A stretch of 64,000 nucleotides of DNA from an uncultured Gammaproteobacteria bacterium. GTDB taxonomy: Bacteria; Pseudomonadota; Gammaproteobacteria; JABDGN01. Positions 9,371 to 40,624 of this stretch are shown here, piece after piece. The stretch covers positions 179,020 to 243,019 of the forward strand of contig CAXBIY010000001.1 of assembly GCA_963975985.1 (NCBI GenBank), in the 5' to 3' direction. The number at the start of each line of letters is the position of its first letter. Position 1 is the first letter of the stretch. The notes under the pieces are model-generated. The model was not told where the DNA came from, searched no databases, and saw nothing but the letters and a program-made list of their open reading frames with translations. The position numbers and the translations under genes are program-made.

Positions 9371-9515
9371 GTTAGCTTGTTAAAGTTTGATTGGTCGAGT
9401 TGTCTAGCGTAAGATTGCCCTGCAACCCGCTGGCTTACAGCATGTAAGTCGCTGCAAAATCACGAACCAAAAAGGTTCGTCATAGAATAAAGGTAAGTGT
9501 TTTCACGATAGGTTT

Positions 9516-9971
9516 ATGATGTTAAATGTTGTACAAAATATTACTGCACACTACAGACAAGCTATCCTGATATTGCTGGCAAGCCTACTGTTTTCCGTGG
9601 GTGCTTATGCCGATACCAAGACACAAATTGAACAAAATATCGCCCCTTTAGCAAAATCACACCTTTCGGGAAAAAAAATTCAAGCGCGTGTGGTTAAAAA
9701 GCTGAGCCTCAAAGAGCAATTAGCGTTGGGTAAAAAGATCTATGTTCGCCGTTGTTCGTTTTGTCATGCCAGCGGTTCAGCCGGGGCACCAAAGGTCAAA
9801 GACACCGCCGATTGGCAGCTACGTGATAAAAAAGGCATGAAGCTGTTACTCGAACACGTTACCAAAGGTTACAACATGATGCCACCAAAAGGCACCTGTA
9901 TGAGTTGCGACCAACAAGAATTGCAGTCTGCAATTCTATATATGATGCAGTTGAGTGGTGTGAAACATTAG
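9516..9971 (+). CDS. Mono-haem c-type cytochrome (class I) with signal peptide
   Basis: CSFCH haem-binding motif, N-terminal signal peptide, distal MMPPKG methionine region. Confidence 0.75.
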   Translation: MMLNVVQNITAHYRQAILILLASLLFSVGAYADTKTQIEQNIAPLAKSHLSGKKIQARVVKKLSLKEQLALGKKIYVRRCSFCHASGSAGAPKVKDTADWQLRDKKGMKLLLEHVTKGYNMMPPKGTCMSCDQQELQSAILYMMQLSGVKH

Positions 9972-9974
9972 TCC

Positions 9975-10128
9975 CTTCGCCCCGCGGCTTGAGCGCGGGA
10001 TCCAGAAGATGTTAGCTATTTTATTTTCCTGGATTCCGTGGTCAAGCCACGGAATGACGTGTTCATTCAGTATTTGTTATGTCGTTCTAACATGTACCGT
10101 CATCCCGCGGCTTGACCGCGGGATCCAG
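9975..10128. repeat. Cluster of three ~30-bp REP-like hairpin units in alternating orientation (BIME-like)
   Basis: Units at 9975-10005, 10029-10059 (inverted variant CTGGATTCCGTGGTCAAGCCACGGAATGACG) and 10099-10128 (GTCATCCCGCGGCTTGACCGCGGGATCCAG). Confidence 0.85.
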
Positions 10129-10135
10129 AGTATCG

Positions 10136-10429
10136 TTAGCCTAGAATACTTTCATATAAATCATTCCAGCTTGGATTGGTTTTTTCAATGAGGGTAACTT
10201 TCCATTGTCGCTTCCACTCTTTTAATCGCTTCTCGCGATGGATTGCACTTTCAGCATTGTCGTGTGATTCATAATACACGAGGTTTTTTACGGCATACTG
10301 CTTGGTAAAACCATCGACTACCGATTGCTTATGTTGCCATATACGTTTTATTAAATTAGATGTCACTCCGATATATATAGTGCCATTTTTTTTACTTGCG
10401 AGGATGTATACAAAAAATCTTTTATCCAT
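10136..10429 (-). CDS. Small GIY-YIG nuclease-superfamily protein (UPF0213/YhbQ-like)
   Basis: FFVYILASKKNGTIYIGVTSNLIKRIWQHK GIY-YIG motif; start set at MDKR because the upstream 18 codons are translation of a REP unit. Confidence 0.75.
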   Translation of the reverse strand: MDKRFFVYILASKKNGTIYIGVTSNLIKRIWQHKQSVVDGFTKQYAVKNLVYYESHDNAESAIHREKRLKEWKRQWKVTLIEKTNPSWNDLYESILG

Positions 10430-10438
10430 ATTATTCTC

Positions 10439-10621
10439 CTGGATTCCGTGGTCAAGCCACGGAATGACGGGGTTGTTTGTCATCCCGCGGCATGACGAGG
10501 TTGATTCAGTATTGGTTAGGTCGTCCCAATATGTATCGTCATCCCGCGGCTTGACCGCGGGATCCAGAGCTGGTTAGCTATTCTGTTTACTTGGATTCTG
10601 TGGTCAAGCCACGGAATGACG
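10439..10621. repeat. Cluster of four REP-like units (two full, one truncated, one variant)
   Basis: Units at 10439-10469, 10479-10500 (truncated), 10538-10567 and 10592-10621. Confidence 0.85.
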
Positions 10622-10696
10622 GTGCTAGGTCGAAAAATGACGGTGCTCATTTAGTATATGTTTCATTACGCCGCGACAGTACATCGTTTGCCCAAG

Positions 10697-12211
10697 CTAA
10701 TCCCGATCCAATCGTCGGTAATTAATGGCTTCACTCAAATGTGTGAGTTCAATTTTATCTTTACCCGCTAAATCAGCAATCGTCCTCGCGACTTTTAAAA
10801 TACGGTGATACGCGCGAGCAGAAAAATTTAATTGCTCAATGGTATCGTGCAAAAAATCTTGTTCAGTTGAGCCTAACTGACAGACTGTATCTAACTGTTT
10901 GCCCATCAGTGCCGCGTTTACTTTTTTATTGCGCTGCAGCTGCACGTTATGTGCCGCGATAACGCGCTCGCGTACCGTTGTACTATCTTCTGGTGTTTCA
11001 TCATGCAGTGTGCGAAAAAAATCTTTCGGTAAAGGCGGCACTTCAACTTGCATATCAATGCGATCTAAAAACGGGCCTGATAACCGTGCGCGATAACGTT
11101 GCACTTGTTCTTGCGTGCAACGGCAGGCTTTTTTGGGGTCGCTCATATAACCACAGGGGCAAGGGTTCATCGCCGCTATCAATTGAAAGTTAGCGGGGAA
11201 ATCGACTTGTCGTGCGGCGCGTGAAATCGTAATGGTTTTTGATTCCAACGGTTCGCGTAAACTTTCTAACACTTGGCGCGTAAACTCGGGTAGTTCATCC
11301 AAAAACAACACGCCGTTATGTGCCAATGAAATTTCTCCCGGTCGTGGTGGTGAGCCGCCGCCGACTAAAGCCACGCTTGATGCCGTATGATGCGGCGATC
11401 GAAATGGCCGTTGTTGCCAATGCTTCAGATCAAACCCCCGTAAACTAATCGATTGCACCGCGGCAATTTCTAATGCTTCTTGCGTCGAAATCGTCGGCAT
11501 AATGCTGGGCATGCGTGAAGCGAGCATGGTTTTTCCCGTGCCGGGTGAGCCCATCAACAATAGGCTATGACCACCACTGGCTGCAATTTCTAGCGCACGT
11601 CGCGCTTGGTATTGGCCTTTCACTTCGGCTAAATCTTTATCGTGTATTTGTGAGCTGGGTAATGTGGTGTGATCAAATAAGCCTAAGCGTTGTTGGCCAT
11701 TCAAATGCGCACTGACTTCAAGAAGATGCTCGGCGGGAAAAATCTCCAAGCCTTCAATTAAACTCGCTTCCGCTGCATTGCCTTTCGGCACAATGAGTTT
11801 GCGCCCCGCATTTTTGGTTTCCATCGCAAACGGTAAAATACCTTTAATCGCCCGCAATTCACCGGATAATGCTAACTCACCGGCAAACTCATACTCGCGC
11901 ACGCTAGCCAATGGCACTTGTTCCATGGCACTTAAAATGCCCAGTGCAATGGGCAAATCAAACCGCCCACCTTCTTTCGGTGTATCTGCCGGTGCTAAAT
12001 TAACCGTAATACGTCGACGCGGAAATTCAAACTGCGAATTCATCATCGCACTGCGCACGCGCTCACGACTTTCTTTCACCGCTGTTTCCGGCAATCCGAC
12101 AATCGAAAACCCCGGCAGCCCGCCGGTCAAATGTGTTTCCACCGTCACATACGGTGATTGAATACCATTTTGCCCACGTGTGTGAACAATGGAAAGTGAT
12201 AAAGTCGACAT
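10697..12211 (-). CDS. yifB: YifB/ComM-family Mg-chelatase-like AAA+ ATPase
   Basis: Lon-protease-like N-terminal domain, LLMGSPGTGKTM Walker A, C-terminal ChlI-like region, 504 aa. Confidence 0.85.
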   Translation of the reverse strand: MSTLSLSIVHTRGQNGIQSPYVTVETHLTGGLPGFSIVGLPETAVKESRERVRSAMMNSQFEFPRRRITVNLAPADTPKEGGRFDLPIALGILSAMEQVPLASVREYEFAGELALSGELRAIKGILPFAMETKNAGRKLIVPKGNAAEASLIEGLEIFPAEHLLEVSAHLNGQQRLGLFDHTTLPSSQIHDKDLAEVKGQYQARRALEIAASGGHSLLLMGSPGTGKTMLASRMPSIMPTISTQEALEIAAVQSISLRGFDLKHWQQRPFRSPHHTASSVALVGGGSPPRPGEISLAHNGVLFLDELPEFTRQVLESLREPLESKTITISRAARQVDFPANFQLIAAMNPCPCGYMSDPKKACRCTQEQVQRYRARLSGPFLDRIDMQVEVPPLPKDFFRTLHDETPEDSTTVRERVIAAHNVQLQRNKKVNAALMGKQLDTVCQLGSTEQDFLHDTIEQLNFSARAYHRILKVARTIADLAGKDKIELTHLSEAINYRRLDRD

Positions 12212-12276
12212 GGTTTTCCCTCAATTAATTATAATATTTGAGGGGCGCTGGTTTTATTTGGGTTAAGAGTAGTTGA

Positions 12277-12510
12277 TTATGATTTATTGGCAAGTTGTTT
12301 TTCTAGCTGATCAAGCTTTTCACGGCTGCGCTTAAGCACCTTGGTTTGGGTATCAAACTCTTCACGCGTTACCAGATCAAGTTTGCTAAGCTGTGATTCT
12401 AAAACTGATTTAAAGTTTTTATGGATATCGTCACGCACACCCTTCATGCCAGGCGGCAGGCTATCGGCGAGTTTTTGGGCAATGTCGGAGAATATCTTGC
12501 TATCTATCAT
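12277..12510 (-). CDS. ubiK: UbiK/YqiC-family (BMFP) ubiquinone biosynthesis accessory factor
   Basis: MIDSKIFSDIAQKLADSLPPGMKGVRDDIHKN...LDLVTREEFDTQTKVL is nearly collinear with E. coli YqiC. Confidence 0.7.
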   Translation of the reverse strand: MIDSKIFSDIAQKLADSLPPGMKGVRDDIHKNFKSVLESQLSKLDLVTREEFDTQTKVLKRSREKLDQLEKQLANKS

Positions 12511-12580
12511 GAGGGGATTATACCCCCATTTCGTCCCAAGATGCTATGATGCTCTCAAGCATTATCAGGGAGTTTGCCGC

Positions 12581-13474
12581 ATGTTGAGTTTTTTACCCAA
12601 GCCGTTGATAGGTATTTTTGCTGTCTTTTGTTATATCGTGTTATTTGTCGGTTTATCGATTTATATTTTCGCCATTGCGCCGGTTAAATTCATTGTGCCC
12701 ATGCGCGGTTGGCAAAATCATTTTACAGCTTGGTATCGCTTAACGCCGCGTATTTGGACGAGTGTCAGCAATTTCATTATGCGCCTCACCACGAAAACCA
12801 AGTGGGACATTCAAGTGAGTGGTTCATTCGATAAATTAAAATCGTATATCGTGATGTCAAATCATATCAGTTGGATGGATATTGCTGTGGTGCAACGTGC
12901 GATTAATAAAGTCTCACCTCCGGCTGTTTATTTCATGAAACAACAACTTATTTGGATGCCTTTTGTCGGTTGGGCCTGTTGGTTGATGGGTTTTCCCTTT
13001 ATGCGTCGGCATAAGAAAAGTTATATTGCTAAGCACCCTGAAAAAGCCGGGCAAGATATGGCAACCACTAAAAAATCTTGCGAAAAATACCGTGATTTTC
13101 CGGTGACATTGGTCAACTTCACAGAGGGCACGCGCCGAACCAAAGCCAAACACGATGCTCAGCAATCGCCTTATAAACATTTATTAAAACCTAAGTCAGG
13201 TGGCTTGGCATTTGCCTTGCAAGTGATGGGCGATCAAGTCAAAAGTTTTGTTAACGTGACGATTGTGTATCCTAATGCCAAGCTTAATATGTGGGATATG
13301 CTATGCGGTCGTGCTAAAGCCATTATCGTATATGTTGATTGCTTGCCCGTGCCCGCCGATTTGCAGGGTGGTGACTACCGACAAGACAGAGATTACCGTT
13401 GTCGTTTTCAAGCCTGGCTGAATGGTGTTTGGGAAGCAAAAGATAACTTGATTGATAGTCTTTTAGCGAAATAA
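12581..13474 (+). CDS. PlsC-family acyltransferase (YihG-like lysophospholipid acyltransferase)
   Basis: H(X4)D motif NHISWMD and FTEGTRR motif; start set at ATG 12581 because the ORF-track start overlaps ubiK antisense. Confidence 0.65.
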   Translation: MLSFLPKPLIGIFAVFCYIVLFVGLSIYIFAIAPVKFIVPMRGWQNHFTAWYRLTPRIWTSVSNFIMRLTTKTKWDIQVSGSFDKLKSYIVMSNHISWMDIAVVQRAINKVSPPAVYFMKQQLIWMPFVGWACWLMGFPFMRRHKKSYIAKHPEKAGQDMATTKKSCEKYRDFPVTLVNFTEGTRRTKAKHDAQQSPYKHLLKPKSGGLAFALQVMGDQVKSFVNVTIVYPNAKLNMWDMLCGRAKAIIVYVDCLPVPADLQGGDYRQDRDYRCRFQAWLNGVWEAKDNLIDSLLAK

Positions 13475-13705
13475 AAATTAATTGCTTCCAGATGTAAATT
13501 GAGAGGTTAAGTATAGACGGCGATTGGATTTTTGAGCCAATTTTGCTAATAAACAGAGGGGAAACAATTCTAATTTTATTTGGTTAGAGGTCGATGGTAT
13601 TTTGCTCCAGCCACTTTGACCAAGAGATTTTTTTGAGATGGATAAACTGTTTGAGCATGTGTGGTCACAAGGAACAGTAAAATGGAGCTATTACTATACC
13701 CTAAT

Positions 13706-14308
13706 TCAAAACCACCCCGACTCACTAAATTGGCCCTGGCACTTAATTAATTGCTCGTGATACGTCATGGCCAAGGCCGACACGTGATGGGCGACTTTAA
13801 CCAGCCAAGGTTTATTCAAATATGTTTTTTCATGATAGCCTTCAATGCCTTCATGGTAAGCCAGATATAAATAAAACGTTTCATTACTAGGAATGCCGAG
13901 CTTCACATGGGCCTCATGCGCATACCAAGCGACAAAATCGGCAGAATCATCAAACTCACTACGTGAGGCGGCATAATTGCCTGACGCGCGGCGATAAACA
14001 TCCCAAGTCGCATCTTTCGCCTGTGCATAACCATAAGCACTAGATGAACGAAACCAAGGGATGATGCCAAAAATATGTGGGCGTGCGGGTTGAATGGTGG
14101 CATAAAAATTTGATTCTTGATGCATGATGGCCATCACCACATACATCGGAATGCCCCAACGCTCCTGTGATTTTTTCAACGAGCGATACCAACTCGGGTA
14201 CTCTTTGAAAATCGCGCACACATCATTTGCATGCTCCGGCCGCGTCGTCGTGCAAGCGGTTAAGAACAGGAATGAAAGCAAGCTGATGAGGATAATAAGG
14301 CTGCGCAT
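13706..14308 (-). CDS. Lipoprotein with lytic-transglycosylase-like (SLT family 1) motifs
   Basis: Lipobox LTAC after a signal peptide (start taken at MRSL); HQESNF and WDVYRR resemble MltE motifs. Confidence 0.45.
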   Translation of the reverse strand: MRSLIILISLLSFLFLTACTTTRPEHANDVCAIFKEYPSWYRSLKKSQERWGIPMYVVMAIMHQESNFYATIQPARPHIFGIIPWFRSSSAYGYAQAKDATWDVYRRASGNYAASRSEFDDSADFVAWYAHEAHVKLGIPSNETFYLYLAYHEGIEGYHEKTYLNKPWLVKVAHHVSALAMTYHEQLIKCQGQFSESGWF

Positions 14309-14324
14309 GGATGGATAATAGCAA

Positions 14325-15566
14325 TCACTCAATCGTTTGTCGATGACCGTCAGGCTTCCAAGCGGGGGCGATGACATTGGCGCCGATGTCTTGGTCGATC
14401 AGTCTTGCAGGTTTTATCGCGTCTTTGCCAAATAAGTCGTTAATATCATCGACGGTGATGTCGAGTTGTGAGCGTTGCTTCGCCTCATTATCATCAAAAA
14501 ACAAATCGCTTTGTAAATTTTCCGGTTGTGGGTCGAGCGCGGTGATTTGTACTTGGCAAATCGGTTCGCCTTGCCAAATGTCGGGTAAGTTTTTTTTGCA
14601 GAGTTTGAAAAGCAAACGATTACTGTTCGAGGGCTGAATTAAGTGTGCACGCACAGCGAACCAACCTAGGCGATAATTTTTTATGCCGATATAAAACGTT
14701 TGCGCTTGCATGTGATTTTTGCGTAAGCGTTTACACAGTTTTTCACTCATGTGCATGAAGTAGGTCAAAATGGTTTCGCGATCATCAGTGTTGGGTGGCA
14801 CGACTTTGCCATGGCCCATTGACTTGGGTGCATTGATGGTAGATTTAACGGAGTCAGGATCCATGCCTTGACACATGTACCACATGCGTCGTCCCCAATT
14901 GCCAAAGCGTTTGGCAATCACGCCGATAGGCACTTTTTCCATGTCGCCACAATTAACAATGCCATAGCGTAATAAAAATGTCGCGGTGCGTTTGCCAATG
15001 CCACAGAGCTCTTGCACGGGCACATTCGCTAAACGTTGTTTGGCTTGCCAAGGTAGAATAATAGTTAAGCCATCCGGCTTTTGTAATTTAGCGGCATATT
15101 TTGCTGTGGTTTTGTCACCACTTAATCCTACCGAGCACGGTAAGCCACAGGCCTCCCAAACGGTTTGTTTGGCTAGGCGGGCAATGGTTTCGGGTGTGCC
15201 AAGTAATTTTTGACAGCGGGTGACATCGAGAAACGCTTCGTCGACGGAAAATATTTCAATGTCAGGCGTTACATTCTGCAAGCTTTGCATAATGGTTCTT
15301 GAAATTAAAGCGTAACGAGATGGCTGCGCGGGCACAACTATCAATTCCTTGCAGAGCTTCCTTGCTTCGCGTAATCGCATCCCTGTGTGAATGCCAAATT
15401 CCCTGGCTTCATAAGAGCTGGTGATAATGCAAGTGCCTTGCTCGCCATTCGTTACGGCAACGGGTTTCCCTTGTAGTTCTGGTTTTTGTTGTTGTTCCAC
15501 CGACGCGAAAAAAGCATTCATGTCGAGGTGGATAATGGCGCGAGGCCAGTGTTTGTTATTATTCAT
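14325..15566 (-). CDS. dinB: DNA polymerase IV (Y-family)
   Basis: IIHLDMNAFFASVE catalytic start, little-finger region, 413 aa with C-terminal extension; RBS GGAGAAGG. Confidence 0.85.
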   Translation of the reverse strand: MNNNKHWPRAIIHLDMNAFFASVEQQQKPELQGKPVAVTNGEQGTCIITSSYEAREFGIHTGMRLREARKLCKELIVVPAQPSRYALISRTIMQSLQNVTPDIEIFSVDEAFLDVTRCQKLLGTPETIARLAKQTVWEACGLPCSVGLSGDKTTAKYAAKLQKPDGLTIILPWQAKQRLANVPVQELCGIGKRTATFLLRYGIVNCGDMEKVPIGVIAKRFGNWGRRMWYMCQGMDPDSVKSTINAPKSMGHGKVVPPNTDDRETILTYFMHMSEKLCKRLRKNHMQAQTFYIGIKNYRLGWFAVRAHLIQPSNSNRLLFKLCKKNLPDIWQGEPICQVQITALDPQPENLQSDLFFDDNEAKQRSQLDITVDDINDLFGKDAIKPARLIDQDIGANVIAPAWKPDGHRQTIE

Positions 15567-15580
15567 GTTTTTTCCTTCTC

Positions 15581-15750
15581 CCCTTGAGGGGCTTTGTTGA
15601 ATAAATCAACTTTTTCAGCTTCGTCATCCCGCGGCTTGACCGCGGGATCCAGTAACTCATTGATTTTTCTGGATCCCGCGGTCAAGCCGCGGGATGACGT
15701 GCTGTAAAGTTGTATAAAAGCTGATTTATTCAACAAAGCCCCTCAAGAGG
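15581..15750. repeat. Composite MITE-like element: outer inverted arms CCTTGAGGGGCTTTGTTGAATAAATCAA flanking two inverted REP units
   Basis: Arms 15581-15608 and 15722-15750 are reverse complements; REP units at 15623-15652 and 15669-15699; a related copy lies at 63850-63956. Confidence 0.8.
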
Positions 15751-15923
15751 GAAAGAGAATATAGGTCACTTCTTGTTATGGAATTCATATTCTCGTAAAT
15801 ACTGCCTAGGCCCAACACGCCCCACTTGAAAATCAAAATGGATGCGGTGTGATAACCACCGAAAGTTTAAGTCAAATGTAGTCTGCATGATGTCTCCTCC
15901 TTGTTTGTGCTTCATCTTCATTT

Positions 15924-16517
15924 CTATTCGAATCGAAATAATCCTTTATAAATCGCAATCACCTTAACGCGCTCTTCATCAAACACCATGGGTGAATAAG
16001 CTGCGTTTGCGGGGAACAAACTGACGGAACCATCTTCATTATGGTAGTAACGTTTTAGCGTAGCTTCTTCATTGTCGACCATCGCGACGACAATTTGGCC
16101 ATTGCTGGCATCTTCGGTTTTTTCGCAAATCACATAATCGCCATCAAAGATGCCTTCATTGATCATGGAGTTGCCTTTCACTTTTAATAAAAACCGACGG
16201 CGTCCCATGATTTGTGCACCGAGATCAAAAATGGCATCATCTTCCACTGCTTCGATTGGCAAGCCGGCAGCAATTTTGCCCATTAAAGGTAAGGCAAAAG
16301 CCGTGTCATTATCCGCCAAGCGAATGTTACGACGTTTGCCCGGAATGGTTTCTAATAAGCCTTCATCGACCAATGCACTCACATAGCGATGCACCACCCC
16401 GCGGGATTTAATGCCAATGCCTTCCGCAATTTCGGCCTCAGTGGGGGCAAGGTCATGCTTGCGCAGATATGATCGAATAAAGCGGTACACTTCATCTTGT
16501 TTGGGGGTTAGCGTCAT
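15924..16517 (-). CDS. lexA: LexA repressor (S24 peptidase)
   Basis: N-terminal winged HTH, cleavage-site AG and GNSM...K catalytic dyad; start chosen at MTLTPKQ. Confidence 0.85.
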   Translation of the reverse strand: MTLTPKQDEVYRFIRSYLRKHDLAPTEAEIAEGIGIKSRGVVHRYVSALVDEGLLETIPGKRRNIRLADNDTAFALPLMGKIAAGLPIEAVEDDAIFDLGAQIMGRRRFLLKVKGNSMINEGIFDGDYVICEKTEDASNGQIVVAMVDNEEATLKRYYHNEDGSVSLFPANAAYSPMVFDEERVKVIAIYKGLFRFE

Positions 16518-16680
16518 GTTTGAACTCCTTTTGCTCTCGTTTAGAAGCATTATAGGGGACAAAGAGAGGTCAAACAAGCGCTTTTGATTGTTATTTCATG
16601 CTATTTTAAAAAGCTAAAACAATTAGCATGTTGTTATATTTTGCCTATATTTTTGGGTGTTATTTACTCAAGGAGGAGTG

Positions 16681-16770
16681 ATGGAAAAACTTTCGAAGTC
16701 GACCAACCTTCAGGTCCTGATAATAACCCTTACCTTGGTGGTTAATTTAACGCAAGCGCTGATTGATTAG
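16681..16770 (+). CDS. 29-aa hydrophobic peptide (MEKLSKSTNLQVLIITLTLVVNLTQALID) with a strong Shine-Dalgarno sequence; candidate small membrane or toxic peptide
   Basis: AAGGAGG five nt upstream of the ATG; one predicted TM segment; divergent from lexA. Confidence 0.3.
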   Translation: MEKLSKSTNLQVLIITLTLVVNLTQALID

Positions 16771-16791
16771 AGATAGCTGTGGTTGATGTAG

Positions 16792-18027
16792 CTATTTAAG
16801 CTTAGATAAGCGATGAGCAGTTTGTAAAACCTCTGCTTGTGCAATAACGGCATCCGCCATATTGATGGGTAGTGGTATCGGTAGCGTTTTTAATGAAGCA
16901 TATAAGCTTTTAACTCTATCAAAATCGCCTTGCTTATGTAAGTCAAAGGCGATTGTTTCTGCTTTTTTAATTTGTTCATTGGTTGCTGGCAGTAACAAGT
17001 ATGTAAAGAGAATGTAACAAGCATCAACCCATGCTGATTCTCGTTCTTTTTTAGAAAAAATTCTTTTATAGGTTGAATAAATATTTTCAACATTCTGAAT
17101 GCAAATATCAGCAACGCTTTGCCAGCCCTTGTCCTTGATGAGCAGTAATTGCATGGGTGAGCAGACAAAGTAGGCGAAAATATAATGCTCGATGACACGT
17201 TGGTAACGCTTGGTTGATTTTTCAGTATTTAACAAACCGTAATGATGGTTTGCAATTAAAATTAACATACGCGCATCACCTGAATCTTCCATGTTATTCA
17301 AATAAGTGGTTTTCATTGCTGGCGTCGTACTAGGGTCAATAAACTGGGTATAGAAATAATCAGGATAGGAATATTTAATAGCTAGTGCGGCATCGTCGGT
17401 GGTTATGTCTAGTGCGTCTGGGAATGTTTTGTTTTTGAGTGATTTATAGTATTTCGCGAAACGATTATAGGAGAATTTAGCCCCTGGAAAATCTAACTGA
17501 CTTGCCATATGAATGCTTTCTAACGCTTCATTGATTGCGTTTTTTAATGTTCTTGTATCTCGACGGCTATTTTGATCAAATTGCAACAAAAACAAGCCTA
17601 AATAATAACAAGCAGCTTTGTGGCCTGTTTTAGCCACTGAGAATAATGTGTTGTGTAATTCAGCGGGTTTAAATAATTCCGCTACGTACATGGTTGTCAT
17701 CGCGTGAAGAAAGATTAGTTCATTACGTGTCGCTACCGTATGTTCGTGCGTGCTACTGTCCGTCGTTTGGAAATGTGTTGAGTGAACATTGGTTTTTTCC
17801 AAGCAGCTTTTTAGAAAGCCTTCGGGGTAGCGAAAATTTAGTGCGGCAATAAAAGCAAACAATTTTGTATAGTAAACTTTAGTCGCATCTATTCTTGGCA
17901 CGTGTGATGAAGTGGGTGAGGCCGGTCTTGCCCGTGCTTGTTGTCGTAAAGTTGAATAATCGGGTGAGGCAAAATGGGTGTTTTCCATAGTGCTGCTAGT
18001 TGCGCTACTTGCAGCGGGCATATGCAT
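16792..18027 (-). CDS. Sel1-like/TPR-like eukaryotic-like protein, C-terminal 411 codons of an interrupted paralog of 18277-19791
   Basis: KTGHKAACYYLGLFLL motif; collinear with residues ~100-504 of the neighbouring paralog. Confidence 0.55.
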   Translation of the reverse strand: MHMPAASSATSSTMENTHFASPDYSTLRQQARARPASPTSSHVPRIDATKVYYTKLFAFIAALNFRYPEGFLKSCLEKTNVHSTHFQTTDSSTHEHTVATRNELIFLHAMTTMYVAELFKPAELHNTLFSVAKTGHKAACYYLGLFLLQFDQNSRRDTRTLKNAINEALESIHMASQLDFPGAKFSYNRFAKYYKSLKNKTFPDALDITTDDAALAIKYSYPDYFYTQFIDPSTTPAMKTTYLNNMEDSGDARMLILIANHHYGLLNTEKSTKRYQRVIEHYIFAYFVCSPMQLLLIKDKGWQSVADICIQNVENIYSTYKRIFSKKERESAWVDACYILFTYLLLPATNEQIKKAETIAFDLHKQGDFDRVKSLYASLKTLPIPLPINMADAVIAQAEVLQTAHRLSKLK

Positions 18028-18045
18028 TGCCTTATCAGTCGAATT

Positions 18046-18252
18046 TCATTGTAAAGTTAAACGTTGACTGCGATGTCGTGCTACTTGCTTACCTGTGTAT
18101 GTGGTGTGAAATGCCCGCGCTAAAGGCGGAGAAAACGTTGGCATAGCTGGTCCTGGCGTTGCGCTAGTCGTCAGCTCTATTGAACGTAACATTAATAGTG
18201 AGTTGACGCGAGCCACATAATCATCAATATTTTGGAACCGTTCTATTTGCAT
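18046..18252 (-). CDS. N-terminal 68 codons of the same interrupted gene, separated from 16792-18027 by a single in-frame TGA
   Basis: Same reading frame as 16792-18027; ERFQNIDDYVARVNSLLMLR matches the paralog's KHFPSTDNYRACVFKILEIRH. Confidence 0.4.
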   Translation of the reverse strand: MQIERFQNIDDYVARVNSLLMLRSIELTTSATPGPAMPTFSPPLARAFHTTYTGKQVARHRSQRLTLQ

Positions 18253-18276
18253 AAATTGTTATGGTTAGTTGGCCTG

Positions 18277-19791
18277 CTAACAGCCTGATGAACCATCTCC
18301 TTTTAACGCATTAATGACTTGGTTAGCTTCTGCTGGCAGTGATAAGTTTAAACTATGTAGCACATTGTAATACATCGTAATAACATCTTTGTGTGGCTTC
18401 ATCTGTTTAAGATTTGGCTCCAGTCCACTGAGAATGAATTGTTTTATTGGTTTGATAAAATAGTCAAATGCTATAAAACGCATGCTAACCTCTTCATTTT
18501 TTTTATAAGGATTTTTGTCTACAAAAAGCTTCATATTATTGATACAAACATCCATAACCTTACGCCATTGATATTTACCAGCATTAATTATTGGGATAGT
18601 GAATTGTGCTGATATCATGAGATAGATATAGATAATGTAGTCAATAGCATTAATATATTCCTCTTTTGTTAAAGGCAGTATCTTGGGGGGGGATTTTAAT
18701 TTATTAGCCGTTATCTGTGCCATGAGTAGTAGTCCACGTATATCTTGGTTCGTCGAGCATAGTCTCGATAATGCATTAACTCTTGACTGGTCTATTTCAG
18801 GATAAACAAGTTTGGCTACAAAATAGTCAGGACTCTGACACGCTACTGCATTGGCAACGTCTTTATCGCTGAGCTTATGAGCGTTGAATGCCTCTATCGA
18901 TTGATATTGAGGATAAAATTTAAGAAAACGGATTAATGTAGCTTTAGCACCGGGTACATTTTTATCGATGGCTTGATTGAAATCATCAAATGCTTGTTGG
19001 GCATTAAGGTCTTTAAGTGCCCCACTCCTTCGCGTAAAGCGACTAAGTGAAGCTATACCGGGATTAGAATTCGCGGCATATTGGAGTTGTTCCAATGTTA
19101 ATAAACCTAAATAGTAAGAGGCTGCTGGGTGTCCTGCTTTGGCTATTGTTTCAAGTGAGCCTAGAGCTGTAGACATTGAATCAGCTGCTGCCATGCGCGC
19201 ACGGGTTAGCGCAAATAAAAATTCTTTTTCACGAGCAATAGCTTCAGTTTCTTGAATAAGTTGTCCATCAATAATGTGTGGTGTTGCCTCTGTGTCATCA
19301 ACACACGCGTTAAGGAATGCATCTGAATAATGTACTTGCAGTGCTGTAACAAATCCAAATAAATGTTGGTAGTATTCTATAGTTTCAGTATTAATCGTGA
19401 GAGGTGAGCTGCTTAATGCATCTGAACTAGCAGGAGCTTGACGGCGCAATAATGAGTTTCCGGGAATGCGACCACGTGCAACACGACCAGGAGCAGTAGC
19501 TTGTCGTTGAAGATTTTCAAGAGTCATTTGCCCCATTGCTTTAGCTAAATCAGTAGATGTAGCGGTGGTTTGCGGCGGGTCTATTTCTTCTAGTGGTGGC
19601 GGTGGTGTTAAGGGGCGAGAAGGTGGTTTAACTTCATAGCCGCTAAACGAAGGTGCCCGTGCTACCATTGAGCTTATAGAGCTTTGGCGTTTTACCGGTT
19701 GACTTGTTGGCTCGGCTTTATGGCGTATCTCAAGGATTTTGAATACGCAAGCTCTATAGTTGTCCGTACTCGGGAAGTGTTTTACTAGCAT
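18277..19791 (-). CDS. Sel1-like/TPR-like protein with proline-rich linker, intact paralog; effector-like, function unknown
   Basis: 504 aa; PPSRPLTPPPPLEEIDPP linker; AKAGHPAASYYLGLL Sel1-like motif. Confidence 0.55.
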   Translation of the reverse strand: MLVKHFPSTDNYRACVFKILEIRHKAEPTSQPVKRQSSISSMVARAPSFSGYEVKPPSRPLTPPPPLEEIDPPQTTATSTDLAKAMGQMTLENLQRQATAPGRVARGRIPGNSLLRRQAPASSDALSSSPLTINTETIEYYQHLFGFVTALQVHYSDAFLNACVDDTEATPHIIDGQLIQETEAIAREKEFLFALTRARMAAADSMSTALGSLETIAKAGHPAASYYLGLLTLEQLQYAANSNPGIASLSRFTRRSGALKDLNAQQAFDDFNQAIDKNVPGAKATLIRFLKFYPQYQSIEAFNAHKLSDKDVANAVACQSPDYFVAKLVYPEIDQSRVNALSRLCSTNQDIRGLLLMAQITANKLKSPPKILPLTKEEYINAIDYIIYIYLMISAQFTIPIINAGKYQWRKVMDVCINNMKLFVDKNPYKKNEEVSMRFIAFDYFIKPIKQFILSGLEPNLKQMKPHKDVITMYYNVLHSLNLSLPAEANQVINALKGDGSSGC

Positions 19792-19856
19792 GTGTACCCT
19801 TAATCTTATTAGTGGCTCACAGTTTAGCGTAAAAAAATCAATAAAACCTTAACAGT

Positions 19857-20417
19857 TTAAACGTTCACAAACCCTAGCGTATACGCGTTAATAAAGTGAA
19901 ATAAGAAGTAAAGAACGATCATGATAGGGATGGGTGCTAAGTCAAACATGCCGATGGGTGGGATGATTTTGCGTACGGGCTTTAGCATCCAATTAGTTAA
20001 GTGGTATAGCGTGTTTTGCAACGTACCGAAAGAACGTTCGGGGGTAGCTATCCAACTGATGACGGACTGAATGATGATAGACCAAAAGAAAATCATGATG
20101 ACGAGTTGTAATAATTCACCGACACACAAAATCATCGCGTCAGTGATGCTGAGTAATGTGTCTCCAGCCCACCAATAATAAAGATACAGTTTAATAAACT
20201 CGACGATGATTAATAATGCGATAGCAGCGAAGTCGATGTAACGATGCGACGGGATAATTTTTCGCAGCGGTAAAATAAAAGGGTTCGTCACTTTAATGAC
20301 AAATTGTGACAAGGGGCTGTGGTAGCTGGCTTTAAACGAGGGTAGCAAGATGCGCAAGAAAATGGTCACAAGATAGATAGTGAAAATGATTTGTAATAAG
20401 AATGGGCCAGTGTCCAT
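19857..20417 (-). CDS. yggT: YggT-family membrane protein
   Basis: Duplicated YGGT domains, 186 aa; synteny yggS-proC-yggT. Confidence 0.7.
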   Translation of the reverse strand: MDTGPFLLQIIFTIYLVTIFLRILLPSFKASYHSPLSQFVIKVTNPFILPLRKIIPSHRYIDFAAIALLIIVEFIKLYLYYWWAGDTLLSITDAMILCVGELLQLVIMIFFWSIIIQSVISWIATPERSFGTLQNTLYHLTNWMLKPVRKIIPPIGMFDLAPIPIMIVLYFLFHFINAYTLGFVNV

Positions 20418-20457
20418 GAGGGTGCTCCGTGTTGGTTGAGGCTAATATACCTTAAAA

Positions 20458-20500
20458 GTAGGGTGGATAAAAGGTTGAGCGGAGTTCATGCATATCCAAT
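20458..20500. repeat. Partial copy of the family-2 MITE terminus (GTAGGGTGGATAAAAGG...)
   Basis: Matches the left end of the element at 6399. Confidence 0.5.
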
Positions 20501-21310
20501 CTACTCAGTAGCCAGTGCTTCAGCACGTCTGACGGCCGCCTGTATGGCATTCGCAAAAATAGATTCTAAACCTTCAGCTTGCATCGTATTAATGGCCGCT
20601 TCTGTCGTGCCACCGGGTGAGGTGACTTTGCGGCGTAACTCAGCAGGGGAGTCATCGCTTTGCGTGGCCATTCGTGCTGCACCCAATGCGGTTTGGAGTG
20701 TTAGTTGTCTTGCTGTGTCACGGGGTAAACCTATTTTTTCACCGGCTTGTTGCATGGCTTCCATGACGAAAAAGAAATAGGCGGGGCCACTGCCTGAAAT
20801 AGCGGCGACTTTATCAATGTCAGCGTCACTGTCAACCCAAACAGTAATGCCGATTGCTGCCATCATGTCATTGGCTATTTGTTTTTGTTCAGCAGAAACA
20901 AAAGGATTGGCAAATAATCCGCTAGCGCCTGCGCCGATTTGAACGGGGGTATTAGGCATGCAACGGATGATGGGCACATTACCTCCGAGCCATTGTTGTA
21001 TGACAGCTTCTGTCGTGCCAGCGGCCACAGAGATGACTAAAGGTTTGTTGGATTGAATGACATCGTGCAATGTTTCACAAACAGTTTGCATCATGTTGGG
21101 TTTAACGGCGAGTACAATCACATCGGCGTGTTGTGCTGCTGCGATATTATCGGTGGTGATGTTGATGCCTAGTTTGGTTTGATGTACGTGTAATTTTTTT
21201 TCATCACGTCCTGTTGCAGTGATCTGTTTAGCATCGTAACCGGTATTAATTAAGCCTGAAAAAATAGCACTAGCCATGTTGCCCGAGCCGATGAAAGTGA
21301 TGTTGCTCAT
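20501..21310 (-). CDS. proC: Pyrroline-5-carboxylate reductase
   Basis: IGSGNMASAI Rossmann motif, 269 aa. Confidence 0.85.
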   Translation of the reverse strand: MSNITFIGSGNMASAIFSGLINTGYDAKQITATGRDEKKLHVHQTKLGINITTDNIAAAQHADVIVLAVKPNMMQTVCETLHDVIQSNKPLVISVAAGTTEAVIQQWLGGNVPIIRCMPNTPVQIGAGASGLFANPFVSAEQKQIANDMMAAIGITVWVDSDADIDKVAAISGSGPAYFFFVMEAMQQAGEKIGLPRDTARQLTLQTALGAARMATQSDDSPAELRRKVTSPGGTTEAAINTMQAEGLESIFANAIQAAVRRAEALATE

Positions 21311-21345
21311 TTGTGTGTTTTCCTATGTTTAAGTACTAGTCAGTA

Positions 21346-21466
21346 CTGGATCCCGCGGTCAAGCCGCGGGATGACGAGTATTTTACCAAGCCGCGGGATG
21401 ACGAGTATTTTACCAAGCCGCGGGATACTGTTTTTGTCATTCCGCGGCTTGACCGCGGAATCCAGG
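21346..21466. repeat. REP-like cluster inside the yggS-proC intergenic region, with an internal 27-bp tandem duplication (AGCCGCGGGATGACGAGTATTTTACCA x2)
   Basis: Units CTGGATCCCGCGGTCAAGCCGCGGGATGACG and GTCATTCCGCGGCTTGACCGCGGAATCCAGG. Confidence 0.85.
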
Positions 21467-21477
21467 ACCTCGAAGAT

Positions 21478-22164
21478 TTATGTGTCGCGTAAACCAAAAA
21501 TGTCAGTCCCTACGCGAACGATAGTCGAACCTTCTGCGATGGCCGTTTCTAAATCGTTCGACATTCCCATTGATAACGTGTCAAGTGCAAAACCTTGTTG
21601 CTTAAGTTGTGCAAAGGCTTCGCGCACTTTTGCAAAGCTTTCACGTTGGGCTGCAGTATCTTTGTTAGGCTTGGGGATCGCCATTAAGCCTCGCAATGTT
21701 AACCGTGAATATTGTTGTATTTGTTCGGCTAATTGCGGCAGCATTTCAACACTGACTCCGGCCTTGGTTTTTTCATCATCAACATTAAGTTGTAGGCATA
21801 TATTTAATGGTGGTAAATGCGATGCACGCTGTTCATGTAAGCGAGCCGCAATTTTTTCACGATCAATGCTGTGCACCCAATCGAAGTGATTGGCGATGTC
21901 TTTGGTTTTATTGCTTTGAACGACACCAATAAAATGCCAAGTCAGATCAGCGTTATTGAGGGTTTTTATTTTTTCCAGGGCATCTTGTACTTGGTTTTCG
22001 CCGAAACTGGCCTGGCCAGCAGCAATGGCTTCTTTAATGTCGTCGATGGGGCGTGTTTTACTGACCGCGAGCAAGCTAATGTCGCTGGGATCGCGCCCTG
22101 CTTGCTTTGCCGCAATGGCAATGCGTTGCTGAACGTGTGTAAGGTGCTTGGCTATTTCGAACAT
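21478..22164 (-). CDS. yggS: PLP-homeostasis protein YggS (COG0325)
   Basis: LLAVSKT PLP-lysine motif, 228 aa. Confidence 0.8.
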   Translation of the reverse strand: MFEIAKHLTHVQQRIAIAAKQAGRDPSDISLLAVSKTRPIDDIKEAIAAGQASFGENQVQDALEKIKTLNNADLTWHFIGVVQSNKTKDIANHFDWVHSIDREKIAARLHEQRASHLPPLNICLQLNVDDEKTKAGVSVEMLPQLAEQIQQYSRLTLRGLMAIPKPNKDTAAQRESFAKVREAFAQLKQQGFALDTLSMGMSNDLETAIAEGSTIVRVGTDIFGLRDT

Positions 22165-22258
22165 AAACGGTATTATAGCTCAGGATTGAGATTTAAGGAC
22201 TGGGCCGTTTTGATATTTGGCTCAAAGGTCATTAGGCATTTAATTAAAAGGATTTATC

Positions 22259-23326
22259 ATGAACATCACTGAACTACTCGCTTTTGCGTACAAAAACGGC
22301 GCTTCGGATTTACATTTGTCGGCTGGGTTGCCACCTCTCATTCGTGTCGATGGCGATTTGCGCCGAGTAAAGATGGAACCGTTGGATAAAAAGAAAGTGA
22401 TGGCACTCATTAGTGACATCATGACCGATCGCCAGCGTGCTGAGTTTGAAAAAAATATGGATGTCGATTTTTCATTTGAAGTGAAGAAACTGGCACGTTT
22501 CCGTGTCAACGTGTTTCAGCAAGACCGAGGCCCAGCCGCTGTGTTTCGTACCATTCCTTCGACTATTTTGTCACTAGAAGATTTAAAGCTCCCCCCCATT
22601 TTTGGTGATTTGTGTAAAGTGAATAAAGGTCTGATTCTTGTGACAGGCCCAACGGGTTCCGGTAAAAGTACGACATTGGCGGCCATGGTCAATCGCGTTA
22701 ACCAAACACGTTACGATCATATCTTAACCATTGAAGATCCCATTGAATTCGTACACCAGAGTAATAAATCACTGGTTAATCAGCGTGAAATTCATCGCGA
22801 TAGTTTGAGTTTTGCTAATGCCCTGCGCGCGGCATTGCGGGAAGATCCTGATGTGGTGTTGGTGGGGGAGTTGCGTGATCTCGAAACGATTCGTTTAGCA
22901 TTGTCCGCTGCTGAAACAGGACATATTGTGTTCGGCACGTTGCATACGGTATCGGCTGCCAAAACAGTGGATCGGATCGTTGATGTATTCCCCGGCGATG
23001 AACAGCCCATGATTCGTTCAATGTTGTCGGAATCATTGCAGGCGGTGATTTCACAAACTTTGATTAAAAAACAAGGCGGAGGCCGAGTGGCCGCGCAAGA
23101 GATTATGGTGTGTGATTCTGCCATTCGTAACTTGATTCGTGAAAACAAAATTCCGCAGATTTATTCATCCCTACAAACGGGTTCAGATAAGGGTATGCAA
23201 ACCTTGGACATGCACTTGGAACAGTTAGTCGCAGAAGGTGCCATCACGATGCAACAAGCTTACGAATATGCTAAAAATAAAGCGGATTTTGATGATGGCA
23301 CGATGGGTGTCCAAGACGGAGACTAG
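22259..23326 (+). CDS. pilT: Type IV pilus retraction ATPase PilT
   Basis: GPTGSGKSTT Walker A, AIRNLIRE motif, 355 aa. Confidence 0.85.
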   Translation: MNITELLAFAYKNGASDLHLSAGLPPLIRVDGDLRRVKMEPLDKKKVMALISDIMTDRQRAEFEKNMDVDFSFEVKKLARFRVNVFQQDRGPAAVFRTIPSTILSLEDLKLPPIFGDLCKVNKGLILVTGPTGSGKSTTLAAMVNRVNQTRYDHILTIEDPIEFVHQSNKSLVNQREIHRDSLSFANALRAALREDPDVVLVGELRDLETIRLALSAAETGHIVFGTLHTVSAAKTVDRIVDVFPGDEQPMIRSMLSESLQAVISQTLIKKQGGGRVAAQEIMVCDSAIRNLIRENKIPQIYSSLQTGSDKGMQTLDMHLEQLVAEGAITMQQAYEYAKNKADFDDGTMGVQDGD

Positions 23327-23440
23327 GCAAAAATATTCTCTGTCATCACATTGCACTTCTGTCGTTTAGTGTCTATACTCCTCACCAGAAAATCGATTTG
23401 AAAATCGCGGCCAACCCCGCGATTTTCGTGTATTGAACGG

Positions 23441-24618
<1,178 letters not shown>

Positions 24619-38145: not shown

Positions 38146-38763
38146 ATGAAAAAAACAATGATTGCAGCCGCTGTCGCAACAGCAATGATAATGGGTGGTA
38201 CAGCCATCGCTGCGCCGAAAGTGTCAAGCACTAGCGAATTGCATTGGTATGCAGGTCTTGGTGCCGGTTATTCTTACGTGCAAGATAAGCAATCTCATAC
38301 AATGGATGGCTCACATTATGAAGGCATTCCCGGTGGGCTCGCAGGTAATGTATTTGCCGGCTACAACTTTAACCAGTATATCGGCATGGAAGTCAGTTAT
38401 GATGATATAGCTAACACCTCAACCTATGTAGCCGATGGCGATGGCACATTAGCGGGTGGCACTAAATATAATGGCATCGGTTTTGGATTGGTGGGTAACA
38501 CACCTGCACTACACGGCATGCGCCTTTTCGTCAAACTGGGCGGTGAATATTTGCACGGTAGATCGTTCGACATGAATGCAACAACCAACAGTGTAGGCCT
38601 AGCCTACGGCGCGGGTATGAGTTATAACATTACTCAGCATCTCATCGCACGTGGAGAATGGAAGCAAGTGTTGCAGCAAAAAAATGTGTCAACCAACATA
38701 GATACAACAGTGACAGTTCCACAAATGAATCTATTTTTAGCTCAATTGGCTTATTCATTCTAA
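38146..38763 (+). CDS. Small outer-membrane beta-barrel protein (OmpA-N/Opa-like), paralog 1
   Basis: Signal peptide, alternating amphipathic strands, C-terminal LAYSF. Confidence 0.7.
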   Translation: MKKTMIAAAVATAMIMGGTAIAAPKVSSTSELHWYAGLGAGYSYVQDKQSHTMDGSHYEGIPGGLAGNVFAGYNFNQYIGMEVSYDDIANTSTYVADGDGTLAGGTKYNGIGFGLVGNTPALHGMRLFVKLGGEYLHGRSFDMNATTNSVGLAYGAGMSYNITQHLIARGEWKQVLQQKNVSTNIDTTVTVPQMNLFLAQLAYSF

Positions 38764-38795
38764 TTGATGTCCTGCTACGGTTTTACGTGCACAAC

Positions 38796-38883
38796 CCATG
38801 GGGGGGTGCACGTGAAATCGAAGCCGGTTCTGATGAAAAAATAATCAAAATAGTCTTTGATGCCCTAGTTAAAAAATCAACCT
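38796..38883 (+). repeat. Duplicated copy of the gshB 3' end (REIEAGSDEKIIKIVFDALVKK vs gshB REIEADADEKITQTFFDTLVKK), left by a segmental duplication
   Basis: Nucleotide collinearity with 37940-38017; followed by a duplicated intergenic leader and an OMP gene. Confidence 0.7.
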
Positions 38884-39014
38884 AAACATATATTGCTTAC
38901 AAATTAACCAGACTATTCCACATACGTTATTTTTATGATAATCTAATCTCGCTTCGTTGCACCCAGGAGACGGTGCGATGAAATATCGAAATATTAATCT
39001 TAAAGGAGAGAGAG

Positions 39015-39740
39015 ATGAAAAAGACAATTATTGCAGCAGCTGTAGCAACAGCAATGGTAATGGGTGGCACGGCAATCGCTGCGCCGAAGGCAATGGCATC
39101 TGGTTCGTCATTTACAAAAGGTAATGGCTGGTTTGTCGGTGTGGGTGCAGGTTATTCTAATGTGCAGTCAGGCGTGACAAAAGTAGCGGCTAGTGATATC
39201 GGTGGCGCTTTTAGTGCTAACCAAGTTCAAGGCGGCTTAGCAGGTTCAATATTTGGTGGTTACATGATCAACAAATATTTAGGTTTTGAAATGAGCTATG
39301 ATCGTTTTGCTAATACAACGCAAGCTTCAAGTGACACTATGATAACTTCTGATGGCCCTGTTACAACGCTTGAGGGTGTGTCAACTAGCATGCAAGGCAT
39401 TGGATTTGGTTTGGTCGGCTATACACCAGCATTTCACGGCCTAAGTGGCTTTGTTAAAGTTGGTGGCGAATATTTGCATTCTGATAACACGCTTGGTGGT
39501 GTTTCTGGTGATGCGACGGTGGGCGGCTATAGTGCCTTTACGACAGATTCTGTTGCTTTCACTTACGGTCTGGGTGTTAACTATGCGTTTACTGAGCATT
39601 TATCAGCCCAAGCTGAATGGAAACAAATTCTGCAACAAAGCGGTGTGAAAACAAGTTTCGAAAATTCTGAGGGTCAGGCATTGTCTGGTACTATCCCACA
39701 AATGAACTTGTTCACAGCTAATTTAGTTTACAAATTCTAA
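39015..39740 (+). CDS. Small outer-membrane beta-barrel protein, paralog 2
   Basis: N-terminal 25 aa nearly identical to paralog 1; C-terminal LVYKF. Confidence 0.7.
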   Translation: MKKTIIAAAVATAMVMGGTAIAAPKAMASGSSFTKGNGWFVGVGAGYSNVQSGVTKVAASDIGGAFSANQVQGGLAGSIFGGYMINKYLGFEMSYDRFANTTQASSDTMITSDGPVTTLEGVSTSMQGIGFGLVGYTPAFHGLSGFVKVGGEYLHSDNTLGGVSGDATVGGYSAFTTDSVAFTYGLGVNYAFTEHLSAQAEWKQILQQSGVKTSFENSEGQALSGTIPQMNLFTANLVYKF

Positions 39741-39759
39741 GTCAAGTTGTTCAAACAAA

Positions 39760-39790
39760 AAAGCGGGTTTTTAACCCGCTTTTTTTATAA
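39760..39790 (+). terminator. Rho-independent terminator AAAAAGCGGGTTTTTAACCCGCTTTTTTT
   Basis: Perfect stem GCGGGTT/AACCCGC followed by a T-run. Confidence 0.8.
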
Positions 39791-39856
39791 CTTGCAACTG
39801 AGCCCTAACCTTTATATCATTCCCCTATCCTATAACGCACGCACAGAGAGAACCTC

Positions 39857-40510
39857 ATGAAACGCATTCTTCCCTTGATTTTGGCTTGTTCAATCGCTAG
39901 CACAGCATTGGCGGCGGATGATAACTATAGCGCGCCGGCTAGCAATAATCCCGATCAGAGCCAAGCGCAAGACCAGTCGCAGATGCAAGCGCCTAATCAG
40001 CCAGATGAAAATGTGGCCTTGCAAAATCAGCTATCGAAAATTCATGCCGAAGCGAATTTGGGTTGGAGTGCCACGCATTTTCATGGTCTCAATAACAATG
40101 GGTTATTTGGCGGTGGTGTATCAGCGGGTTATGACTTGTTGCCTAACTTAGCGTTTGATGTCGGCTACCTAGGCCAAAAAGATGCGACCAATCGAGAAGG
40201 CGGCGTTATCAGTGAAAGCGCGATTAACATGTTATTGGTGGGTAGTACGCATTTAGTGGATCACTTCTCCGTGTTTTTCAAAATGGGTAGCAGCTATATG
40301 TTAGCCACCTTCAAACAGCCCGCCATCGATACGCAAAAAATGCACCAATGGGTCTTTTCCTACGGCATGGGCTTAACTTATGATTTCACCGGACATTTCT
40401 ATGGGAATTTCCAATGGTTCCACACCCAAGGTAAAGCCGGTAGCTTTGCCAATGGCCGCGGTATCCCCAAATCTGATTTCTATGGCTTGGGCCTTGGCGC
40501 AAGATTGTAA
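39857..40510 (+). CDS. Outer-membrane beta-barrel protein with Q/N-rich region, paralog 3
   Basis: Signal peptide; same beta-strand pattern; ends GLGARL. Confidence 0.55.
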   Translation: MKRILPLILACSIASTALAADDNYSAPASNNPDQSQAQDQSQMQAPNQPDENVALQNQLSKIHAEANLGWSATHFHGLNNNGLFGGGVSAGYDLLPNLAFDVGYLGQKDATNREGGVISESAINMLLVGSTHLVDHFSVFFKMGSSYMLATFKQPAIDTQKMHQWVFSYGMGLTYDFTGHFYGNFQWFHTQGKAGSFANGRGIPKSDFYGLGLGARL

Positions 40511-40516
40511 CCTAAA

Positions 40517-40575
40517 GTAGGGTGGATAAAAGTTCGCGCGAAGCGCGGATAGTTCCACCAGCAGTAGCGGGTGAT
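40517..40575. repeat. Partial family-2 MITE (GTAGGGTGGATAAAAGTTCGCGCGAAGCGCGGATAGTTCCACCAGCAGTAGCGGGTGATGG)
   Basis: Left half of the element seen at 44884. Confidence 0.6.
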
Positions 40576-40624
40576 GGTAAGTAGGTCATACTCAGCCATC
40601 AACCATTTTATTGAGAGACAACAC

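Follow-up and report, generated by a model that had tools for sequence, protein, structure and literature searches.

Split genes and young pseudogenes have been described for Rickettsia and for other host-associated or drifting genomes, and in Escherichia coli UGA is the leakiest of the stop codons, with an A or C at the +4 position weakening termination. Here we describe a stop-interrupted gene in a 64,000-nucleotide (nt) stretch of contig CAXBIY010000001.1 from an uncultured gammaproteobacterium; we refer to this whole stretch as the window, and all coordinates are positions within it. The locus lies on the minus strand at 16792-19791 and consists of an intact gene, A, and a second gene, B, which a single in-frame TGA divides into an upstream part (B-N) and a downstream part (B-C). 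TPR-like proteins and other alpha-solenoid or helical-repeat proteins are among the closest known systems for the two products. We found that A and B are tandem paralogs, that the TGA recurs in different assembly records, and that TGA is an ordinary stop codon in this organism, and we think that B is probably a young pseudogene.

The minus-strand open reading frames (ORFs) listed for 15500-21500 include 18277..19791 (504 amino acids, aa), 18046..18252 (68 aa) and 16792..18027 (411 aa), which bears out the three ORFs of the original prediction, a reading of the DNA made from its letters alone. The locus contains the following features.

18277..19791, minus strand: gene A, the intact paralog of 504 aa, with the stop codon TAG (ORF list and sequence).
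5 nt 5' of the ATG of A, minus strand: AAGGG, read from the sequence.
19723..19791, minus strand: the first 23 residues of A, MLVKHFPSTDNYRACVFKILEIR, a motif whose homology to the start of B-N is supported by a shuffle test.
19102..19143, minus strand: the single motif of A, AKAGHPAASYYLGL (residues 217-230), with the G-x3-A-x3-L-G spacing of Sel1/TPR-type helical hairpins and without a significant profile match.
18046..18252, minus strand: B-N, 68 codons that cover the N-terminal helix of B and the beginning of its linker, ending at the TGA.
18046..18048, minus strand: the in-frame TGA, followed by A (UGA-A), the sole lesion in the 487-codon frame of B and situated in the disordered linker.
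18030..18033, minus strand: AAGG (codons AAG GCA), 8 nt 5' of the ATG at 18021-18019, a candidate ribosome-binding site for re-initiation at B-C.
16792..18027, minus strand: B-C, 411 codons that cover the remainder of the linker of B and its all-alpha domain, with the stop codon TAG.
17593..17634, minus strand: the single motif of B, AKTGHKAACYYLGL (B residues 207-220), located by regular-expression search.

When 16792-18252 was translated in one frame, we obtained 487 codons in which the TGA at 18046-18048 was the only internal stop, so the predicted fusion of the two ORFs around a lone TGA holds. We denote as B the product of B-N and B-C read through this codon. Between the TGA and the first ATG of B-C (18027) there are six sense codons, encoding NSTDKA. 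Public gene callers report both B-N and B-C as ORFs, starting B-C at its second ATG (18021) to give a protein of 409 aa. The stop codon of A and the start of B-N are separated by 24 nt, and no Shine-Dalgarno-like sequence is visible upstream of B-N.

The paralogy of A and B is well supported on either side of the TGA. In a BLASTP comparison, A and read-through B shared 26% identity over 444 aa (E=2e-29), far beyond chance. Because this alignment was shifted in the low-complexity N-terminal part, we tested the first 23 residues separately. Aligned without gaps, MLVKHFPSTDNYRACVFKILEIR of A and MQIERFQNIDDYVARVNSLLMLR of B-N score 36, compared with 15.8 +/- 3.3 for shuffled sequences, none of which (0/2000) reached 36. 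The match lies upstream of the TGA, and B-N is therefore the homolog of the N-terminus of A; the split gene is collinear with its intact neighbor throughout, and its stop is premature relative to that homolog. Two further features noted in the original prediction are likewise real: a Pro-rich linker, in which Pro, Ser, Thr, Ala and Gln make up 54-58% of residues (31-32% in the C-terminal domain), and an AxGHxAAxYYLGL-type motif, which occurs as AK[AT]GH.AA.YYLGL once in each protein (A 217-230, B 207-220). A tblastn search with both proteins against the whole window found no third copy. We considered whether the 501-aa orphan encoded at 57646-59151 is a third paralog, and ruled it out (hhalign probability 0.1). 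This minus-strand ORF, which like 41409-42044 on the plus strand has no Pfam family, has a low third-codon-position GC content (GC3) of 0.33 and a Ser/Thr-rich stretch, and shares with A a 9-residue 'LNLSLPA[ED]' that is not significant.

The exact 68-aa product of B-N, and hence the TGA, is found on four public contigs from different assemblies, and in three of these (all but the NCBI contig) the TGA was read directly.

TARA_SAMEA4397489 scaffold_572, 101 kb: carries the TGA, with 0 mismatches over the 14.1 kb compared with the window.
NCBI contig, 396,563 bp: carries the 68-aa product.
ERZ3422065 NODE_29737, 2314 bp: spans the TGA, with 3 mismatches, all in gene A.
Logan contig from run ERR2762134, 978 bp: spans the TGA, with 0 mismatches.

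All copies of the locus are at least 99.9% identical. The three mismatches of the ERZ3422065 contig (its positions 1195, 1203 and 1228, corresponding to 18787, 18779 and 18754 of the window) fall within a 34-bp span of A, and at least two of them change residues (Q to H, V to D); they could be microdiversity or errors in a low-coverage assembly. No intact B allele of about 487 aa is on record: the sole protein cluster matching B-C holds only the 409-aa and 411-aa forms, while look-ups of the exact B-C products (409 and 411 aa) returned no match. Comparison with other copies, which the original prediction had proposed as a check, thus yielded the same TGA in all four contigs and no recorded intact allele.

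TGA is an ordinary stop codon in this organism. It terminates 12 of the 57 ORFs in the window, including dinB, atpG and glmS, the last of which ends at its universal C-terminus (...AKSVTVE) followed by TGA, and all conserved genes of the window are open under translation table 11. Because TGA ends conserved genes, and glmS at its canonical end, it is not a sense codon here, and genetic codes 4 and 25 are excluded.

A and B appear to form a two-member orphan family without a detectable relative in public data. An exhaustive search with a profile hidden Markov model built from A and B-C recovered only these two proteins from 1.84 billion representatives, which stand for about 15 billion proteins. 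Two word-indexed protein searches returned nothing besides A and B themselves, and no relative was found in a scan of GTDB genomes with the A/B profile, in a scan of JGI metagenomes with B-C, or by tblastn against 81 gammaproteobacterial loci. NCBIfam and PADLOC gave nothing usable. A PHROGs match at 15 bits and a match to serum albumin among PDB sequences (E=0.13) were dismissed as chance. The complete lack of homologs is the one mildly notable point about A and B, and such ORFans are common.

Taken together, these observations are best explained by a recent nonsense mutation in a dispensable linker of a redundant, old tandem paralog, so that B would be a young pseudogene; of the three options left by the original prediction (recent nonsense pseudogenization, sequencing error and programmed readthrough) the first is the best supported and the other two fare poorly. 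We consider this reading probable. A lineage-specific orphan gene would have been duplicated in tandem long ago, giving A and B, in each of which a disordered linker of about 100 aa joins a short N-terminal helix to an all-alpha domain of about 370 aa. At 26% identity the duplication appears to be old. The alignment retains about 100 invariant positions and the same architecture in both copies, which suggests that B was under selection, and both frames open, long after the duplication. Much later, a single point mutation in the linker of B would have created the TGA; one stop and no frameshift in 487 codons suggest that the lesion is young relative to the duplication. Translation would now stop at codon 69, leaving a product of 68 aa. 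Some B-C may still be produced if ribosomes re-initiate at the ATG that lies 24 nt downstream, 8 nt after the AAGG, and traces of full-length B could arise from the ordinary leakiness of UGA; nothing indicates that either is programmed. Three points weigh against B being a young pseudogene. We found no diverged strain or sister species carrying the locus, and hence no intact allele that would prove the TGA derived. The assemblies that carry the TGA may share overlapping Tara read sets. Finally, the stop is directly followed by an ATG with a well-spaced AAGG, and neither half carries another lesion; a functional split gene would account for this equally well.

Among the rival explanations of the stop, we rank such a functional split gene first, as unlikely but worth weighing, an assembly artefact second, and programmed recoding last, the latter two far less probable than the first. 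Under gene fission, the TGA would be tolerated or selected in the flexible linker, and the 68-aa module and the 409-aa domain would both be made and would work, separately or as a complex. The position of the stop, in a disordered linker between two structured modules, is consistent with this, as is the absence of further lesions in the two halves. ATGs lie 18 and 24 nt past the TGA (18027 and 18021), and the AAGG at 18033-18030 precedes the second of these at a spacing like that upstream of A and of the gene at 42084-42821, which makes re-initiation to give a 409-aa B-C plausible; judged from these signals, B-C may be translated in this way. However, the K-A-M-x-M residues that supply both ATGs are present in intact A too, and so the ATGs were not acquired for re-initiation. 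AAG is used instead of AAA in 7 of the 31 Lys codons of B, so that the AAGG could easily be due to chance, and a weak 4-bp hairpin covers part of both the AAGG and the ATG.

A further proposal concerns the function of the proteins rather than the stop: the original prediction regarded A and B as Sel1-like, eukaryotic-like proteins and as candidate secreted effectors of an intracellular Legionellales-like bacterium. We find this doubtful. Protein A has an N-terminal helix at about residues 9-24, a disordered Pro/Ser/Thr-rich linker of about 110 aa and an all-alpha C-terminal domain of about 370 aa. The mean pLDDT of the AlphaFold (AF2) models was low, 46 when the full protein was modeled and 53 when only its C-terminal domain was; at this low confidence, the two models agree on about 18 helices, on the N-terminal helix and on a disordered stretch of about 110 residues as the linker, and TPR and Sel1 structures are among many non-specific fold matches to generic helical repeats. 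In hmmscan searches of Pfam-A, Sel1 was not among the matches to A, B-C or B-N at E<=1, and it did not come up either when the excised motif regions were searched at E<=10. The sole Pfam match is TPR_27, at the same motif site in both paralogs, with 15-19 bits against a cut-off of 27. The regular expression G-x3-[AS]-x3-[LIMF]-G matches once per protein, and self and cross BLASTP at word size 2 showed no off-diagonal repeat and no internal repeats of about 36-44 aa. A fair description of A and B would be orphan proteins, predicted to be all-alpha, with a single TPR/Sel1-type helix-pair signature, and the label 'Sel1-like' is not sustained.

Several observations do fit an effector role. A and B are lineage-specific tandem all-alpha proteins with a disordered linker, and their genes have a GC3 of 0.29-0.35, low for a window in which most genes have 0.37-0.54. 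The sub-threshold TPR_27 match shared by the two paralogs and the TPR and Sel1 structures among the non-specific fold matches also count in favor of this reading. An 824-aa ankyrin-repeat protein is encoded 8 kb away, and the closest relative of the window's ArgS comes from an assembly of more than 450,000 contigs that is possibly, though unverified, from a eukaryotic host. Against this, since no homolog of any origin was found among the 1.84 billion representatives, in eukaryotes or elsewhere, A and B are not 'eukaryotic-like'. Neither protein has a signal peptide-like N-terminus or a convincing transmembrane segment, and the 64-kb window contains no Dot/Icm or other secretion-system genes. 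The named best ArgS and PilT relatives include a Gammaproteobacteria bacterium, Oceanospirillaceae, Marinobacterium, Pseudomonas, Lysobacter and similar taxa, with no Legionellales among these names, which are names and not a phylogeny.

A bolder variant would combine function and fission. The TGA would be kept by selection, making B a two-product gene of an unseen family, in which a 68-aa peptide accompanies a re-initiated domain or a low-level UGA-A readthrough form and tunes a host-interaction factor in a host-associated marine gammaproteobacterium with a large ankyrin-repeat protein. We regard this as very unlikely.

A sequencing or assembly artefact, in which the true codon is a sense codon (e.g. 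TGG, TCA or CGA) and the gene an intact one of 486 aa, is also highly improbable. Every sequence here comes from metagenomes, the name of one supporting contig gives a coverage of only 2.6x, and the assemblies may not be independent at the level of reads. However, the same TGA stands in three read contigs from three assembly records, in addition to the 396-kb NCBI contig; one contig differs from the window at three other positions, and is therefore not a copy of the same consensus. Substitutions are not typical of systematic Illumina errors, and the site contains no homopolymer.

Programmed recoding of the UGA, by readthrough, selenocysteine insertion or reassignment to Trp or Gly, would yield a regulated full-length protein of 486 aa, and a lone in-frame UGA followed by A in a frame that stays open for 418 codons downstream is what it would look like. 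The stem-loops promoting readthrough that the original prediction had suggested looking for did not emerge: RNA structure in the 141 nt around the TGA and in the 67 nt from the TGA downstream was no better than in dinucleotide shuffles (z = -0.88 and -0.24). Rfam at gathering score returned only a tRNA across the whole window, with no SECIS families, and nothing in 17850-18300 at E<=10; the SECIS stem-loop directly 3' of the UGA that marks bacterial selenoproteins was thus seen neither by folding nor in Rfam. The tRNA scan identified tRNA-Arg(CCG) as the only tRNA in the window, and none of selA, selB, selC or selD is present there. In the AlphaFold model the TGA falls between the N-terminal helix and the helical domain, where the linker has a pLDDT of about 30 and lacks secondary structure; this linker aligns poorly between A and B. 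A stop in a poorly conserved, disordered linker rather than in a redox motif is an unexpected site for selenocysteine or for a functional readthrough residue. Given these results and the use of UGA as a regular terminator in the same window, we consider programmed recoding the least credible explanation of the stop.

The locus is surrounded by housekeeping genes. The minus-strand order is dinB, lexA, B, A, yggT, proC, yggS, and pilT, the atp operon and glmU/glmS lie on the plus strand. Of 80 gammaproteobacterial loci fetched with PilT, 42 have all four genes of the conserved pilT-yggS-proC-yggT block, and in none of those loci was lexA or dinB found within 10 kb; A and B are therefore located at a synteny break specific to this lineage. 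Neither repeats nor mobile-element ends were found flanking them, promoter and terminator scans at the locus gave results at chance level, and no CTGT-N8-ACAG SOS box was found near it. The listed ORFs of the SLT_4 transglycosylase (13706-14377) and dinB (14325-15566), both on the minus strand, overlap by 53 nt; the downstream gene was probably listed from its first in-frame start, which would explain this.

The host belongs to a poorly sampled, uncultured marine gammaproteobacterial lineage. In the genome scan the relatives of its PilT reached 65-70% at best and came from many gammaproteobacterial orders, and the next-best match to its ArgS has 64% identity, with the rest at 58-62%. This ArgS relative lies on a 21-kb contig (JACCDV010453453.1) of GCA_013565675.1, possibly a eukaryotic host assembly, which would hint at host association but is unverified. 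On that contig atpI directly adjoins argS, and the approximately 17 kb that lie between them in the window (4608-23842 compared) are missing: pilT, yggS, proC, yggT, A, B, lexA, dinB, the SLT gene, an acyltransferase gene and comM, as well as a GIY-YIG gene, a cytochrome c gene, the ankyrin gene and the tRNA-Arg gene. The ankyrin-repeat protein (6896-9370, plus strand; Ank_2, E=5e-43, at about residues 410-615) has large non-ankyrin N- and C-terminal parts. It is the only clearly eukaryote-like gene of the window, and a hint of host association.

The window also contains a palindrome, TCCCGCGG-N5-CCGCGGGA, with 13 intergenic copies where 0.01 would be expected by chance, and which is missing from 81 other gammaproteobacterial loci. 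Its 21-nt cores are at 636, 9980, 10103, 10542, 15627, 15674, 21351, 21440, 53179, 59882, 59985, 63884 and 63931. The copies often form inverted pairs within longer inverted repeats resembling miniature inverted-repeat transposable elements (e.g. 15575-15755, between dinB and lexA), and they give rise to spurious ORFs whose peptides include 'SRGLTAGS' and 'IPRSSRGMT'. A small GIY-YIG nuclease gene (10136-10483, minus strand) lies between palindromic repeats. Elsewhere we noted a PIN-domain toxin-like gene (3238-3642, minus strand), four tandem paralogs of OmpA-like/OMP_b-brl outer-membrane beta-barrel proteins (38146-41290, plus strand; 205, 241, 217 and 239 aa), and a BatD/TPR/VWA cluster of the Bat aerotolerance type at the end of the window (60227-63812, minus strand).

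The locus matters mainly for annotation: B is best recorded as one nonsense-interrupted (pseudo)gene instead of two hypothetical proteins, and A and B should inherit neither a 'Sel1 repeat' nor an 'effector' label. Nothing at A and B points to a new mechanism, and the feature is an ordinary one, as comparison with described systems illustrates. Like the Sel1-like repeat (SLR) proteins (PF08238; Hcp of Helicobacter, LpnE and EnhC of Legionella), A and B are predicted to be all-alpha, and the spacing within their A-K-x-G-H-x-A-A-x-Y-Y-L-G-L motif, G-x3-A-x3-L-G, is that of a typical SLR/TPR helix pair. Unlike the SLR proteins, each has one motif instead of tandem 36-44-aa repeats, lacks a signal peptide and gives no significant Sel1 match, and neither shows detectable homology to SLR proteins or to solved structures. 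B shares an in-frame UGA and a long open frame with phage Qbeta A1 readthrough, with SECIS-dependent selenoproteins and with code-4 genomes in which UGA encodes Trp, and differs from such programmed UGA decoding in having no downstream hairpin or SECIS, in the regular use of UGA as a terminator nearby, and in the location of the codon in a disordered linker. B also resembles the split genes and young pseudogenes of the Rickettsia type: here, too, a single stop has cut one ORF into two that share a frame, an intact paralog adjoins the split gene, and there are no other lesions. It departs from the typical case in that no orthologous intact allele displays the ancestral state.

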